A stretch of DNA of 64,000 nucleotides, taken from NCBI RefSeq assembly GCF_046105845.1, contig NZ_CP151004.1. The stretch is one strand, 5' to 3'. This document shows, piece by piece, positions 10,364 through 63,766 of the stretch. The notes under the pieces were generated by a model. It was not told the DNA's origin, did no database searches, and saw only the letters and a program-made list of their open reading frames with translations. The position numbers and the translations under genes are program-made. This stretch comes from Escherichia coli. GTDB taxonomy: Bacteria > Pseudomonadota > Gammaproteobacteria > Enterobacterales > Enterobacteriaceae. Each line of letters starts with the position of its first letter. Positions within the stretch are counted from its first letter, which is position 1.

Positions 10364-10603
10364 AATAGTGGCCTTATGCAGATGAATGACGTCGCAAGCA
10401 ATTACTTAACGATCGATAACTAAATGATAGATGTGATCTGGATCACATACAAGATATTTTTTATAACAATCATTAATTAATTTAAAAATCTTTAAATTTC
10501 AGTTAAATAGAAAGCAATTATTTTTATGGTTTGTGGACTGGTGAACGGAGGTGATTATTTTTATAATAACCTTTCATTCACAGTCACCAGGTACAACGGC
10601 ATC

Positions 10604-17902: not shown

Positions 17903-20092
17903 ATGCTTTCAACACAATTTAACAGGGATAATCAACATCAAACCACCTCCAAGCCGTCACTGCTTGCCGCCTGCATAGTACTGGCACTCTTACCTTCCGC
18001 CGCTTTTGCTGCACCAGCCACTGAAGAAACGGTGATTGTTGAGGGTTCAGCCACTACTCCAGTTGATGACGAAAATGATTACAGCGTAACGTCTACCTCT
18101 GCGGGTACCAAAATGCAGATGACTCAACGTGATATTCCTCAGTCGGTCACTATTGTTAGCCAGCAGCGGATGGAAGATCAGCAGTTACAAACGCTGGGCG
18201 AAGTGATGGAAAACACGCTGGGGATCAGCAAAAGTCAGGCGGATTCCGATCGTGCTCTTTATTATTCCCGCGGATTCCAGATTGATAACTATATGGTTGA
18301 TGGTATCCCCACCTATTTTGAATCGCGCTGGAATCTGGGCGACGCACTTTCTGATATGGCACTGTTTGAACGCGTAGAAGTAGTGCGTGGCGCGACAGGA
18401 CTCATGACCGGGACGGGTAATCCATCTGCGGCAATTAATATGGTTCGAAAACACGCGACCAGTCGTGAATTTAAAGGCGATGTCTCGGCGGAATACGGTA
18501 GCTGGAACAAAGAACGGTATGTGGCGGATTTACAAAGTCCACTCACCGAAGATGGTAAAATCCGCGCGCGAATTGTCGGCGGCTACCAGAATAACGACTC
18601 ATGGCTGGACCGCTACAACAGTAAAAAGACCTTCTTCTCCGGCATTGTTGATGCTGATTTAGGCGATCTTACGACGCTTTCAGCCGGTTACGAATATCAG
18701 CGCATTGATGTTAATAGCCCAACGTGGGGCGGTTTACCGCGCTGGAATACTGATGGCAGCAGCAACAGTTACGATCGCGCACGCAGTACCGCACCTGACT
18801 GGGCGTACAACGATAAAGAGATCAACAAGGTCTTTATGACCCTGAAGCAGCGGTTTGCTGATACCTGGCAAGCGACACTGAATGCCACCCACTCCGAAGT
18901 CGAATTTGACAGCAAAATGATGTATGTCGATGCCTATGTAAACAAAGCGGATGGTATGCTGGTTGGGCCATACAGTAATTATGGACCTGGTTTTGATTAT
19001 GTCGGCGGCACCGGTTGGAACAGCGGCAAACGTAAAGTTGATGCGCTGGATTTGTTCGCTGACGGTAGTTATGAATTGTTTGGTCGTCAGCACAATCTAA
19101 TGTTTGGTGGCAGTTACAGCAAACAAAACAATCGTTACTTCAGTTCATGGGCCAACATCTTCCCGGATGAAATTGGCAGTTTCTACAACTTTAATGGCAA
19201 TTTCCCACAAACCGACTGGTCACCACAGAGTCTGGCGCAGGACGATACCACACATATGAAATCGTTATATGCTGCCACTCGAGTCACCCTTGCCGATCCG
19301 CTGCATCTGATCCTCGGCGCACGTTATACCAACTGGCGGGTTGATACGCTGACTTACAGCATGGAGAAAAACCACACCACGCCTTATGCTGGTTTGGTAT
19401 TTGACATCAATGACAACTGGTCGACCTACGCCAGCTATACCTCTATTTTCCAGCCGCAAAATGATCGTGACAGTTCAGGCAAATATCTGGCTCCAATCAC
19501 CGGTAACAACTACGAGCTGGGTCTGAAATCGGACTGGATGAATAGCCGTCTGACCACCACGTTAGCCATCTTCCGTATTGAGCAGGATAATGTCGCTCAG
19601 TCCACCGGTACACCTATCCCCGGCAGCAACGGCGAAACCGCCTATAAAGCGGTGGATGGGACAGTCAGTAAAGGTGTGGAATTTGAACTCAACGGCGCAA
19701 TTACCGACAACTGGCAGCTGACGTTTGGCGCAACGCGCTATATTGCAGAAGATAACGAAGGAAACGCCGTTAATCCTAATCTGCCACGCACCACGGTTAA
19801 AATGTTCACCAGCTATCGGTTGCCTGTCATGCCAGAGTTGACGGTCGGCGGTGGTGTTAACTGGCAAAATCGCGTGTTTACCGACACCGTGACACCGTAT
19901 GGCACCTTCCGCGCCGAGCAAGGTAGCTACGCGCTGGTGGATCTCTTCACCCGCTACCAGGTGACGAAAAACTTCTCGTTACAGGGGAACGTCAATAACC
20001 TGTTCGACAAAACCTATGATACCAACGTGGAAGGTTCTATCGTCTACGGCGCACCGCGTAATTTCAGCATTACCGGCACGTATCAATTCTGA
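17903..20092 (+). CDS. fhuE: TonB-dependent outer-membrane receptor FhuE (ferric coprogen/rhodotorulic acid)
   Basis: 729 aa, long signal peptide, TonB box ETVIVEG, C-terminal aromatic residue (YQF). Confidence 0.95.
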   Translation: MLSTQFNRDNQHQTTSKPSLLAACIVLALLPSAAFAAPATEETVIVEGSATTPVDDENDYSVTSTSAGTKMQMTQRDIPQSVTIVSQQRMEDQQLQTLGEVMENTLGISKSQADSDRALYYSRGFQIDNYMVDGIPTYFESRWNLGDALSDMALFERVEVVRGATGLMTGTGNPSAAINMVRKHATSREFKGDVSAEYGSWNKERYVADLQSPLTEDGKIRARIVGGYQNNDSWLDRYNSKKTFFSGIVDADLGDLTTLSAGYEYQRIDVNSPTWGGLPRWNTDGSSNSYDRARSTAPDWAYNDKEINKVFMTLKQRFADTWQATLNATHSEVEFDSKMMYVDAYVNKADGMLVGPYSNYGPGFDYVGGTGWNSGKRKVDALDLFADGSYELFGRQHNLMFGGSYSKQNNRYFSSWANIFPDEIGSFYNFNGNFPQTDWSPQSLAQDDTTHMKSLYAATRVTLADPLHLILGARYTNWRVDTLTYSMEKNHTTPYAGLVFDINDNWSTYASYTSIFQPQNDRDSSGKYLAPITGNNYELGLKSDWMNSRLTTTLAIFRIEQDNVAQSTGTPIPGSNGETAYKAVDGTVSKGVEFELNGAITDNWQLTFGATRYIAEDNEGNAVNPNLPRTTVKMFTSYRLPVMPELTVGGGVNWQNRVFTDTVTPYGTFRAEQGSYALVDLFTRYQVTKNFSLQGNVNNLFDKTYDTNVEGSIVYGAPRNFSITGTYQF

Positions 20093-20151: not shown

Positions 20152-21585
20152 TTAGTGGTTACGGATGTACTCATCCATCTCGGTTTTCAGGTTATCGGAT
20201 TTAGTACCGAAAATCGCCTGAACACCAGAACCAGCAACCACTACGCCCGCTGCGCCCAGTTTCTTCAGGCCAGCCTGATCCACTTTAGACACATCAGCAA
20301 CGCTGACGCGCAGACGGGTAATACATGCGTCGAGGTTAGTGATGTTTTCTTTACCACCAAACGCAGCAACCAGAGCCGGTGCCATTTCGCTGGTACCTGT
20401 CGCTTTTGCATCATCAGTCGCGTCTTCACGACCCGGCGTTTTCAGATCCAGTGCTTTAATCAGCACGCGGAAGATGGTGTAGTAAACAATTGCATAACCG
20501 ATACCGACGATCGGGAACAGCCACAGTTTGCTGCTGTTACCAGACAGAACGATGAAGTCGATCAGACCGTGCGAGAACGACGTACCGTCACGCATCCCCA
20601 GAAGAATACAGATTGGGAATGCCAGGCCTGCCAGAATCGCGTGGATGATGTACAGGATCGGCGCAACGAACATGAAGGAGAACTCGATCGGCTCGGTGAT
20701 ACCGGTCAGGAACGAGGTCAGCGCCGCGGAGATCATAATACCGCCCACTTTCGCGCGGTTTTCTGGTTTAGCAGAGTGCCAGATAGCAATTGCGGCAGCT
20801 GGCAGACCGTACATTTTGAACAGGAAGCCGCCAGACAGTTTACCCGCAGTCGGGTCACCCGCCATATAACGCGGAATGTCGCCGTGGAAAACCTGACCTG
20901 CTGCGTTGGTGTATTCACCAATCTGCATCTGGAAAGGTACGTTCCAGATGTGGTGCAGACCAAACGGTACCAGGCAACGTTCGATGAAACCGTAAATGCC
21001 AAACGCAACTACCGGGTTCTGGTAAGCAGCCCACTGAGAGAAGGTCTGGATTGCAGAACCAATCGGCGGCCAAATGAAGGACAGCACAACGCCAGTAAAG
21101 ATGGCAGCCAGGCCAGAAATGATCGGCACAAAGCGTTTACCGGCAAAGAAGCCAAGATACTCAGGCAGCTTAATACGGTAGAAACGGTTAAACATGTACG
21201 CTGCGATCGCACCGGAGATAATCCCTCCGAGTACGCCAGTATCCGCCAGGTGTTTAGAGGCGATTTCTTCAGCAGGTAAATGCAGTACCAGTGGCGCAAC
21301 CACGGCCATGGTTTTAACCATGATGCCATAGGCAACAACTGCGGCCAGCGCGGATACGCCATCGTTATTGGTAAAGCCGAGGGCGACACCGATCGCAAAA
21401 ATCAGTGGCATGTTTGCAAAGACGGAACCGCCTGCTTCTGCCATAACATGCGATACAACGGCGGGCAGCCAGCTGAAATTCGCGGAACCGACGCCCAGCA
21501 GAATACCTGCGATAGGCAGTACGGATACCGGCAGCATCAGCGATTTACCGACCTTTTGCAGGTTAGCAAATGCATTCTTAAACAT
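20152..21585 (-). CDS. ptsG: PTS glucose-specific EIICB component PtsG
   Basis: 477 aa, [27 protein letters not shown]; C-terminal EIIB domain with active-site Cys ([10 protein letters not shown]). Confidence 0.96.
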
Positions 21586-21615
21586 AATTGAGAGTGCTCC
21601 TGAGTATGGGTGCTT
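21586..21615 (-). promoter_or_regulatory. ptsG 5' UTR ribosome-binding region (SgrS sRNA target site)
   Basis: Minus-strand sequence AAGCACCCATACTCAGGAGCACTCTCAATT immediately 5' of the ptsG ATG; SgrS is known to pair across this region in K-12. Confidence 0.55.
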
Positions 21616-21679
21616 TTTTACGTTCTCACGCGTGGCAAGGGGGGAGAGCCTCGCCGTGTACAGGGCATCTAAGCGCCCT

Positions 21680-21704
21680 TTATTTATTACACAGAGTAAA
21701 ATAA
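21680..21704 (-). promoter_or_regulatory. Mlc operator in ptsG promoter region
   Basis: Palindromic TTATTTATTACACAGAGTAAAATAA ~100 nt upstream of ptsG start, matching the AT-rich Mlc box architecture known for ptsG. Confidence 0.5.
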
Positions 21705-21878
21705 TTCAGTGTCGATTTGTTTGACGGCTATCACGTTTCAACTTCAGATCATTGGAGAAGTTGCACATTTTGACAAAACATATGTCACAATATTTCAAAC
21801 GTGGTTATTCACCGCCCAATTTTCGGCGGTGAACTTTACTCGTTTTAGCCATTAATTACGAGCTTTAAAAAAACTCAT

Positions 21879-22676
21879 TCAACGGATGGATTGAAGGCGG
21901 GAAGCGTCGATGTGAAACAGACGGGCGAAGTTATCGGTGGTTACCTGCGCCAGTTCTTCAACGGCAACACCTTTCAACACAGCCATGTATTCTGCAACGT
22001 CACGAACCATCGCAGGTTGATTCTCTTTTCCTCGATGCGGAACCGGTGCAAGGTAAGGTGAGTCAGTTTCTACCAGTAACCGATCCAGGGGGACATAACG
22101 CGCGGCATCGCGCAGTTGCTCCGCATTACGGAAGGTCACAATGCCGGAAAAGGAGATGTAAAATCCGAGATCCAGTAATTTTCCCGCCGTTTCTCTGTCC
22201 TCTGTAAAACAGTGTAGTACGCCACCGCAATCCGTCACTTTTTCTTCGCGCAGAATTGCCAGCGTATCGGCGCGGGCGTCACGGGTGTGGACGATAACCG
22301 GCTTGTTCAGTTCACGACCAATCTGGATATGATGGATGAAGGACTCTTGCTGACGTACTTTAGTTTCCGGCGTGTAATAATAATCCAGCCCGGTTTCACC
22401 CAGCGCTACAACGCCCTCTTCTGCCGCCAGACGACGTAAATCTTCTACATCGTAGGGATCATTCTGGTTGAGTGGATGCACGCCACAAGAAAATACGACG
22501 TTGTCACGTTCGCCTACCAGATCCCGCATGTGTAAATAACCCGGTAATGTTGTGGCGACTGCCAGACAAAATTTCACATCGCGTGCGGCGGCTTTCGCCA
22601 GAACGTCATCCACGTCCTTATGCAAAGATTCATAATCCAGACCATCGAGATGGCAGTGTGAGTCGACTAAAAACAT
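21879..22676 (-). CDS. ycfH: TatD-family metal-dependent deoxyribonuclease YcfH
   Basis: Recognised N-terminus [11 protein letters not shown] (265 aa) at 22676; ORF track over-extended by 20 codons. Confidence 0.92.
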
Positions 22677-22686
22677 GATGTCTCTC

Positions 22687-23691
22687 TTAAAGATGAGGAA
22701 CCGGTAGCACAACGCCCGGTTGCAGGTAATGCTCAATACGCAGTAAAAGATCGGTGATGAGAAGCTCGCGGTTGATGCCTGTGACAGACATTAACTGTTC
22801 ACGAATGTGGCAAACATCCCCCAGTATAGCCTGCAGGCGCGAGGGAGAAAGATGGTTTGCCAGTTCGACGACCAGGCCCGGCACATCAACATTGGTCACC
22901 TGCGCAGCGCCATGATGGCGTTTTAGCGCATCCATCAGCAACGTTGCCAGCCAGTGTAAACGCGCCGGAGCTTGTTCATGATTAAGGGCCGCTAGCAGCG
23001 AATACCAGTCGCCCGATTGCACGCTATATGCCAGCGCCTGACACAATGTTTCACGAGCCTGCCAGTTATCTCCCTGAAACAACGCCAGTGCCGCCCCAGG
23101 CGAACCGGCGCTTAAGCGCAATGCGGCAAGTAGTGCATCCTGTGACATTGTCACTTCGCGTGAAAGCCAGGTCACGGCGTACTGTTCCGGCGGCGGCGCA
23201 AGGTAATGTAACCGACAACGACTACGTAATGTTGCCAGTAAACGTTCAGGCTCGCGGGTAGCCAGGAAAAACCAGGTTTCTGCTGGTGGCTCTTCAAGCG
23301 TTTTCAGCAATGCGTTAGCCGCGGCGTCAGTCAGTAAGGCAGCATCGGTTACCCAGACAACTTTCGCACCACCTAAGCGTGCGTGCTCATTTAACTTTTC
23401 GGTGACTTCACGTACCGCATCAATGCCCAGCGCATTTTTCCCTTTTTCGGGAGCCAGGGTGTAATAATCGGGATGCGTGCCAGCCTGCATCAACTGACAT
23501 CCACGACAGTGACCGCAACTTTTGTGGCCCTGTGGTTGTTGGCAGAGTAAATAACGGCTCAGGGCGTAGATTAAAGCATCATCGCCCATGCCCGGTAACG
23601 CCTGAATGAGCAGCGCATGGTGACCTCTTCCGGCCTGATAGCTGGCTACCAGTTTTTCGAAATCAGGTCGTAACCATGGATACCATCTCAT
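22687..23691 (-). CDS. holB: DNA polymerase III subunit delta prime
   Basis: 334 aa, [30 protein letters not shown]; Zn-module CGHCRGC. Confidence 0.95.
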
Positions 23692-55369: not shown

Positions 55370-56017
55370 GTGAAGCTATACATTTACGATCACTGCCCTT
55401 ACTGCCTCAAAGCCCGCATGATTTTCGGCCTGAAAAATATCCCCGTCGAATTACATGTTCTGCTCAACGACGACGCAGAAACACCCACCCGGATGGTCGG
55501 TCAAAAACAGGTTCCCATTCTGCAAAAAGATGACAGCCGCTATATGCCAGAAAGCATGGACATCGTTCACTATGTCGATAAACTCGACGGCAAACCGTTA
55601 CTGACCGGCAAACGTTCCCCTGCCATTGAAGAGTGGCTGCGCAAGGTCAATGGCTACGCCAACAAACTGCTGTTGCCGCGTTTTGCCAAATCAGCATTTG
55701 ATGAGTTTTCTACTCCTGCCGCGCGCAAATATTTCGTCGACAAGAAAGAGGCCAGCGCGGGTAATTTTGCCGACCTGCTGGCCCACTCTGACGGTCTGAT
55801 TAAGAATATCAGCGATGATTTACGTGCGCTGGACAAACTGATCGTCAAACCGAACGCCGTGAATGGCGAACTTTCGGAAGATGATATTCAGCTATTTCCG
55901 CTCCTGCGTAATCTGACGCTGGTAGCCGGAATCAACTGGCCAAGCCGCGTTGCTGATTACCGCGATAATATGGCGAAACAGACACAAATCAATTTGTTAT
56001 CATCAATGGCGATTTAA
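55370..56017 (+). CDS. grxB: Glutaredoxin 2
   Basis: 215 aa, MKLYIYDHCPYCLKARMIFGL (CPYC active site). Confidence 0.96.
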   Translation: MKLYIYDHCPYCLKARMIFGLKNIPVELHVLLNDDAETPTRMVGQKQVPILQKDDSRYMPESMDIVHYVDKLDGKPLLTGKRSPAIEEWLRKVNGYANKLLLPRFAKSAFDEFSTPAARKYFVDKKEASAGNFADLLAHSDGLIKNISDDLRALDKLIVKPNAVNGELSEDDIQLFPLLRNLTLVAGINWPSRVADYRDNMAKQTQINLLSSMAI

Positions 56018-62621: not shown

Positions 62622-62845
62622 GGTGTACGGTTCCTGCGAGATGGGAAAGTAAAAATCCGCGGCATGATATAGCAATTATCGATAATTAACATCCACACAT
62701 TTTACGCTACATTTGCGCATTAAAAATTATTTGTTATTTACAAGCGCGGCAATTTCGCCCAGTCTTCAGTCACAAATTTTGGTTGCGGACGAAAAAATGC
62801 GACAATACATACAATTGCCCGTATAGGTTGAAAAACAGGATTGAT

Positions 62846-63766
62846 ATGACGAATCTACCCAAGTTCTCCACCGCACTACTTCATCCGCGTTATTGGTTAA
62901 CCTGGTTGGGTATTGGCGTACTTTGGTTAGTCGTGCAATTGCCCTACCCGGTTATCTACCGCCTCGGTTGTGGATTAGGAAAACTTGCGTTACGTTTTAT
63001 GAAACGACGCGCAAAAATTGTGCATCGCAACCTGGAACTGTGCTTCCCGGAAATGAGCGAACAAGAACGCCGTAAAATGGTGGTGAAGAATTTCGAATCC
63101 GTTGGCATGGGACTGATGGAAACTGGCATGGCGTGGTTCTGGCCGGACCGCAGAATCGCCCGATGGACGGAAGTGATCGGCATGGAACACATTCGTGACG
63201 TGCAGGCGCAAAAACGCGGCATCCTGTTAGTTGGCATCCATTTTCTGACCCTGGAGCTGGGTGCGCGGCAGTTTGGTATACAGGAGCCGGGCATTGGCGT
63301 TTACCGCCCGAACGATAATCCACTGATTGACTGGCTACAAACCTGGGGCCGTTTGCGCTCAAATAAATCGATGCTCGACCGCAAAGATTTAAAAGGCATG
63401 ATTAAAGCCCTGAAAAAAGGCGAAGTGGTCTGGTACGCACCGGATCATGATTACGGCCCGCGCTCAAGCGTTTTCGTCCCGTTGTTTGCCGTTGAGCAGG
63501 CTGCGACCACAACCGGAACCTGGATGCTGGCACGGATGTCCGGCGCATGTCTGGTGCCCTTCGTTCCACGCCGTAAGCCAGATGGCAAAGGGTATCAGTT
63601 GATTATGCTGCCGCCAGAGTGTTCTCCGCCGCTGGATGATGCCGAAACCACCGCCGCGTGGATGAACAAAGTGGTCGAAAAATGCATCATGATGGCACCA
63701 GAGCAGTATATGTGGTTACACCGTCGCTTTAAAACACGTCCGGAAGGCGTTCCTTCACGCTATTAA
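62846..63766 (+). CDS. lpxL: Lipid A biosynthesis lauroyltransferase LpxL (HtrB)
   Basis: Recognised N-terminus [28 protein letters not shown] (306 aa) at 62846; ORF track over-extended 21 codons. Confidence 0.95.

Follow-up and report, generated by a model that had tools for sequence, protein, structure and literature searches.

The glucose transporter gene ptsG of Escherichia coli sets the rate of glucose entry, and its control by Mlc, CRP and SgrS serves as a model for the sequestration of a repressor at the membrane and for silencing by a small RNA. In strain K-12, the promoters P1 and P2, two Mlc operators and a CRP site were reportedly described by Plumbridge (1998) and by Kimata et al. 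(1998), and pairing of SgrS with ptsG mRNA is said to have been established by Vanderpool and Gottesman (2004) and Kawamoto et al. (2006). The K-12 literature on the small RNA describes Hfq-dependent repression by SgrS under sugar-phosphate stress (PMC3089445, PMC1807950). Nucleotides A82-G89 of the ptsG leader are protected together with C174-U181 of SgrS, and compensatory genetics tie G176 and G178 of SgrS to C87 and C85 of ptsG (PMC3089445). The SgrS-ptsG pairing follows a 5-8-4 pattern (PMC2760817). At the level of DNA, ptsG is a confirmed CRP target whose expression drops in a crp mutant (PMC3105977), Fis and ArcA sites have also been placed in the spacer upstream of the gene (PMC8846999), and, according to work cited in the latter source, Mlc binding and derepression in an mlc mutant have been published for a K-12 sequence identical to the one analyzed here.

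We examined the corresponding region in a 64,000-nucleotide stretch of an E. coli genome, hereafter the window, whose orientation is the reverse of the K-12 map. ptsG (20152-21585, minus strand) encodes a product of 477 amino acids with PTS EIIC and EIIB domains, as identified from the list of open reading frames, the RefSeq annotation and Pfam (PTS_EIIC, 1.4e-85; PTS_EIIB, 3.8e-15). It lies between the upstream neighbor ycfH (21879-22736, minus strand) and fhuE (17903-20092, plus strand), and the gene order ycfH-ptsG-fhuE is common to the window and K-12. The interval 21586-21878 is exactly the 293-bp spacer bounded by ycfH and ptsG; the K-12 spacer is 294 bp. A 451-nt query across the spacer matched 5,424 of 5,426 complete E. 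coli genomes at 95-99.8% identity, with ycfH and ptsG annotated on its sides, and the closest of the 5,424 was a single SNP away (99.8%). That SNP is an A at 21712 (gene strand), approximately -25 relative to P1, and is the sole difference from this genome within 21500-21950. Alignment of the spacer to that of MG1655 revealed three differences: two SNPs, located at 21714 and 21712, and an A-tract shorter by one A. All three fall outside the Mlc operators, the CRP core and the SgrS duplex described below, indicating that the ptsG allele of this strain retains all known control sites intact. Taken together with the evidence presented below, we consider it close to certain, by analogy with K-12, that this spacer holds the ptsG control region already known from E. 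coli, with its two layers. Since all of its elements belong to published biology, this finding is already known, and the elements confirmed here add nothing new to the model of ptsG control.

We began with the transcriptional layer. Published Mlc sites are 23-bp quasi-palindromes with invariant TT at -6,-5 and AA at +5,+6 (TT-N9-AA); they are AT-rich from +/-7 to +/-11 and carry A/T at +/-11, where high-affinity NagC sites have C/G (PMC4288165, PMC1874608). The TT-N9-AA core occurs at 327 positions in the 64-kb window, and three of these have A/T at all ten flanking positions and A/T at +/-11. Two of the three fall inside the 293-bp spacer. The first, operator 1 (21682-21704, minus strand), reads TTATTTTACTCTGTGTAATAAAT on the gene strand and the second, operator 2 (21851-21873, minus strand), reads TTTTTTTAAAGCTCGTAATTAAT; both combine the TT-N9-AA core with 10/10 A/T at +/-7 to 11 and A/T at +/-11 on both ends. 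The initial annotation had described one AT-rich palindrome of Mlc type upstream of ptsG. A palindrome of this type is indeed present and stands above chance, but the description of a single site did not hold, as there are two operators approximately 169 bp apart. To score the sites independently of ptsG, we built a symmetrised matrix from the best K-12 candidates upstream of ptsH, manX, malT and mlc, four putative sites assigned by motif criteria rather than by footprints; no ptsG sequence was included. Both spacer sites were top-ranked among the ~64,000 positions of the window: 21851-21873 ranked first and 21683-21705 tied for second and third. Shuffled versions of the spacer reached the score of operator 2 in 1 of 2000 cases and that of operator 1 in 67.

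Logos of Mlc and its paralog NagC are nearly indistinguishable, and either protein, when overproduced, represses the targets of the other (PMC4288165), so we considered whether the two palindromes could be operators of NagC or of another ROK-family protein instead of Mlc. This reading seems to us very improbable. Both ptsG sites have A/T at +/-11, which is the published discriminator of Mlc sites (PMC4288165), and ptsG-lacZ is the standard Mlc reporter and is unrepressed by native NagC. Assignment of the two sites to Mlc is the reading we retain. In one study, neither Mlc nor Fis was enriched by ChIP at MG1655 ptsG under the conditions used (PMC8846999). Elsewhere in the window, between mdtH and grxB, a TT-N9-AA palindrome at 55418-55440 (ATGATTTTCGGCCTGAAAAATAT) is symmetric at 16 of 22 positions and has a matrix score equal to that of ptsG operator 1. 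It may be an unrecognized site of the Mlc/NagC type or a product of chance.

The position of these sites was then set against the promoters. The +1 of P1 was fixed in K-12 (1157766) from the identity of A82-G89 with AUACUCAG (PMC3089445) and from the -103 boundary of a published fusion (PMC1807950), and was carried over by alignment across the one-nucleotide difference in the A-tract. This procedure places the predicted P1 start at 21687 (minus strand) and gives a leader of 102 nt, compared to 103 nt in K-12. Relative to this start, operator 1 spans -17 to +6 with its center at -6 and covers both the -10 region and the start, while operator 2 is centered at -175. Between the two operators lies a probable CRP site (AAACGTGATAGCCGTCAAACAA; 21717-21738, minus strand), identified by its core match, its conservation and its position. 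It is centered 40.5 bp upstream of the predicted P1 start, a position that suits activation. The core matches at 8 of 10 positions, and the pattern alone is not above chance, with 19 occurrences in the window against 27.7 expected; accordingly, support for the site comes from its position, from the published dependence of ptsG on CRP (PMC3105977) and from its conservation, which is 0.9-1.0 for the block across 80 Enterobacterales loci. A perfect CRP core palindrome (TGTGATCTGGATCACA) is present at 10432-10447 and is the sole match in the window with zero mismatches.

A simple promoter scan of the region detected neither P1 nor P2. Its sole match, a sigma-70-like TTGTCA-17-AATGAT at 21776-21748, was set aside: conservation in the spacer is lowest there, and the match fits no known start. 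P2 reportedly starts near 21827 (EcoCyc; Plumbridge 1998), which would put operator 2 at this minor promoter. The same position lies inside an inverted repeat (TTCACCGCC-N8-GGCGGTGAA; 21808-21833, minus strand) that emerged from an inverted-repeat search and coincides with an alignment block. Among relatives the stem of this repeat hardly changes, unlike its loop, and in E. coli there is no T-run downstream of it. Possible roles are a 3' hairpin of ycfH, a segment of the P2 leader and a site for a protein.

We scanned one genome per species and obtained 80 ptsG loci from the Enterobacterales. The strongly conserved upstream blocks in this set were operator 2, the CRP block, operator 1 with the transcription start, parts of the leader and the region of the ribosome site. 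Conservation was 0.8-1.0 over both operator blocks and 0.9-1.0 over that of operator 1. In 69 of the 73 loci in which operator 1 could be located, a site resembling operator 2 is present upstream of it at a center-to-center distance of 167-170 bp; in E. coli the distance is 169 bp. Unlike this fixed operator spacing, the stretch separating operator 1 from the ATG is between 95 and 232 bp long among relatives. As 168 bp corresponds to 16 turns of 10.5 bp, both operators lie on one face of the helix. The conserved spacing suggests that one Mlc oligomer could bridge both sites, by cooperative binding or looping.

We next turned to the translational layer. The ptsG Shine-Dalgarno sequence is AGGAG (21597-21601, minus strand), lies 11 nt before the ATG and is nearly invariant across the 80 Enterobacterales loci. 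Neither sgrS nor mlc lies within the window, and both are assumed to be present in this genome; of 5,426 E. coli genomes, 5,399 carry sgrS. We used the K-12 SgrS sequence. A duplex prediction run on leader and SgrS at full length yielded an uninterpretable pairing of 120 nt and was replaced by local windows, in which every 22-nt window of the leader and the first 30 nt of coding sequence was paired with every 22-nt window of SgrS and the opening energies were added. Across leader and SgrS in full, the lowest-energy local hybrid joined 21613-21594 to SgrS nucleotides 168-187 at -27.8 kcal/mol, in runs of 5, 8 and 4 pairs. We therefore assign the SgrS pairing region, with its 5-8-4 pattern, to 21594-21613 (minus strand). 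Its 8-bp core, AUACUCAG, is 21607-21600, and the duplex includes the AGGAG at 21601-21597, as had been claimed from the sequence around the ribosome site. Residues C21604 and C21602 are C85 and C87 in K-12 numbering and pair with G178 and G176 of SgrS. Because the A-tract upstream of the site is one nucleotide shorter here, leader numbering shifts by one and the core becomes A81-G88.

The hybrid energy alone was modestly unusual (z = -2.9; shuffles had a mean of -21.7 and a standard deviation of 2.1, and 1 in 100 reached the observed value). When the opening costs of both RNAs were included, pairing at the ribosome site had a predicted total of -18.6 to -19.0 kcal/mol, and the leader's centroid fold leaves the target single-stranded. 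By this measure ptsG ranked first among the start regions of the 63 open reading frames of at least 150 aa in the window; the next was at -11.4, and the mean and standard deviation were -2.7 and 3.6. These data bear on the possibility that chance, in a promoter region rich in A/T and a ribosome site rich in purines, produced the palindrome and the SgrS complementarity. The shuffles that attain the hybrid energy alone or, in 67 of 2000 cases, the matrix score of the P1 operator speak for such a reading. However, a 293-bp spacer contains two of the three strict Mlc motifs of 64 kb, its sites take first and second-to-third place with an independent matrix, both operators are kept at fixed spacing across the Enterobacterales, the accessible SgrS energy is first of 63 with a gap of 7 kcal/mol, and the sequence is identical to sites mapped experimentally in K-12 (PMC3089445). 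We attach practically no weight to chance and regard the palindromes and the complementarity as genuine control sites.

Two sgrS alleles circulate in E. coli: one has at least 99% identity to that of K-12 and is found in 3,230 genomes, and the other, found in 2,157, has 80-90%. They diverge sharply on either side of the pairing region and are identical over nucleotides 162-187. A candidate second contact between SgrS and the ptsG leader, a 9-nt perfect complement of the SgrS 5' end (GCAAGGGGG) with leader hairpin 2 (CCCCCUUGC), had a hybrid energy of -25.3 and a total of -1.2 kcal/mol and was rejected because both partners are buried in stems; the G-run of this rejected contact is altered in the second sgrS allele. 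The second-best predicted SgrS pairing in the window is at approximately 62756-62775, upstream of the lpxL open reading frame (62783-63766, plus strand), with a hybrid energy of -22.2, a total of -11.4 kcal/mol and SgrS region 168-188. This site lies upstream of the first possible start of the frame, which differs from the annotated start. To our knowledge, lpxL is not among the known SgrS targets.

A second small RNA is described at the same ribosome-site sequence in another species. In Salmonella, AdiZ, which derives from the 3' UTR of adiA, pairs with this ptsG site and represses translation (PMC12746102). It uses the same critical C (C-19, equivalent to C21604 here) and acts on translation without mRNA decay (PMC12746102). 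That AdiZ does the same in this organism is improbable in our view, since its seed is reported not to be conserved in Escherichia (PMC12746102), and we retain SgrS as the small RNA of this site.

The leader upstream of the SgrS site is predicted to contain two hairpins. Hairpin 1 (21662-21679, minus strand) has a GGGCGC/GCCC stem, and hairpin 2 (21634-21655, minus strand) has a GGCGAGG/CCUUGCC stem and a C-rich loop, CUCUCCCC. Both were identified from single-sequence folds and from covariation among 56 distinct leaders, in which 11 of 11 consensus pairs had compensatory changes (5/5 in hairpin 1, with 93% of its cells paired, and 6/6 in hairpin 2). Overall, 86.5% of the hairpin cells were paired compared to 68% in shuffled alignments, and the covariation score of 0.538, against 0.233 for shuffles, was reached by none of 500. 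When the partner was slid by 1-3 columns as a control, the score was at most 0.18. The loop of hairpin 2 contains CTCC in 64 of 72 leaders (CUCC or CCUCC in the RNA) and is complementary to the GGAG of ptsG's own Shine-Dalgarno sequence. Rfam 15 covariance models gave no match up to E = 1 over 21300-22100, and we found no description of these hairpins in the publications we searched, which are one part of a much larger ptsG literature. Hairpin 2 is the one part of the region that we could not connect with published findings. Conceivably, although on balance we think it unlikely, it is a so far undescribed cis-acting element with a role in adjusting ptsG translation, for instance through contact between the loop and the Shine-Dalgarno sequence, or else a place where a protein or a G-rich RNA docks. 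It may also be no more than a stabilizing hairpin at the 5' end, or have been described elsewhere. An apparent terminator on the plus strand at 21662-21679 is spurious, as it is the complement of hairpin 1.

Alignments place the A-tract (21614-21619, minus strand; GTAAAAAAGC) directly 5' of the SgrS site. It has 6 A in this strain and 7 A in K-12, and the 6-A form is found in two other E. coli, indicating that the tract is polymorphic. In Citrobacter, Pseudocitrobacter and one Enterobacter, an ERIC/MITE-like element of 80-125 bp with TACACA...TGTGTA ends lies within the tract. These insertions (loci L006-L008, L018, L020 and L030 of our set) are located approximately 20-150 nt before the ptsG ATG, and the SgrS site is retained directly downstream of the inserted element.

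Finally, we examined the 374-aa open reading frame that runs antisense to ptsG (20155-21279, plus strand, GTG start), which the initial annotation had judged very probably an artefact. Our data agree: the frame is codon-aligned with ptsG, is a product of codon usage, is not conserved and matches no family. It opens immediately after the ptsG stop codon's complement, and each of its codons is a ptsG codon in reverse complement. Consequently, the only stops it can meet are TTA, CTA and TCA codons in ptsG. The antisense frame ends opposite codon 103, the sole TTA of ptsG, and neither CTA nor TCA occurs among the gene's 44 leucine and 28 serine codons. The frame thus exists because these three codons are used just once in ptsG. 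In ptsG of the 80 relatives, their number ranges from 1 to 17, and the longest antisense stop-free stretch, 76-463 codons, tracks that count. Could the frame nonetheless be a real overlapping gene? It is long and has a GTG start, and in 15 relatives 374-375 codons are likewise free of stops. Set against this, one of the 72 leucine and serine codons of ptsG could give an antisense stop, the stretch is shorter than 300 codons in 49 of 80 relatives and is cut to 321 codons in another E. coli, and the antisense product had no Pfam family match. We give the idea of an overlapping gene hardly any credence, and read the frame as a by-product of ptsG codon choice and no gene. The further step taken in the initial annotation, that regulation happens in the upstream region on account of the artefact, does not follow from it. 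Control of ptsG also involves the first membrane-spanning segment of the coding sequence, which is required for SgrS action, the SgrT peptide and capture of Mlc by the transporter.

Glucose transport leaves the transporter dephosphorylated; in this form it captures Mlc at the membrane, which opens the promoters. Binding and regulation in this strain would be carried over from K-12 by analogy, as follows. P1, with its start at 21687, would be activated by cAMP-CRP bound at 21738-21717 and repressed by Mlc on the 23-bp quasi-palindrome at 21682-21704, over the start and the -10 region. The other Mlc operator (21851-21873) would act at the minor promoter P2, 169 bp or approximately 16 helical turns upstream. 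Under sugar-phosphate stress, SgrS would pair, with Hfq, through nucleotides 168-187 with the leader at 21613-21594 and cover the Shine-Dalgarno sequence; ribosome binding would be blocked and RNase E-dependent decay would follow. Mlc control operates on DNA, through its operator, and SgrS control on mRNA, through a site approximately 80 bp away; the two share one spacer and constitute separate layers of control.

Beyond these elements, the 16-turn spacing of the operators, the covarying hairpins and the variable A-tract with its insertions are modest leads that could refine a heavily used model system. Compared with K-12, the operators, the CRP core and the -10 region of the ptsG promoter are identical in sequence, and the SNPs at 21714 and 21712 lie between the CRP site and operator 1, at approximately -27 and -25 of P1. 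The 20-nt target of the K-12 SgrS-ptsG pairing (PMC3089445) is likewise identical and forms the same 5-8-4 duplex with SgrS 168-187, overlapping the Shine-Dalgarno sequence; directly upstream of it, the two strains differ by the one A of the A-tract. The ptsG operators also resemble the other native Mlc operators, those of ptsH P0, manX, malT and mlc, in being 23-bp quasi-palindromes with a TT-N9-AA core, AT-rich arms and A/T at +/-11, and operator 2 (ATTAATTACGAGCTTTAAAAAAA) is close to the malT candidate (ATTAATTACGAAGCGCAAAAAAA). What distinguishes ptsG from these other native Mlc targets is its pair of operators, held at a conserved spacing of 16 helical turns.
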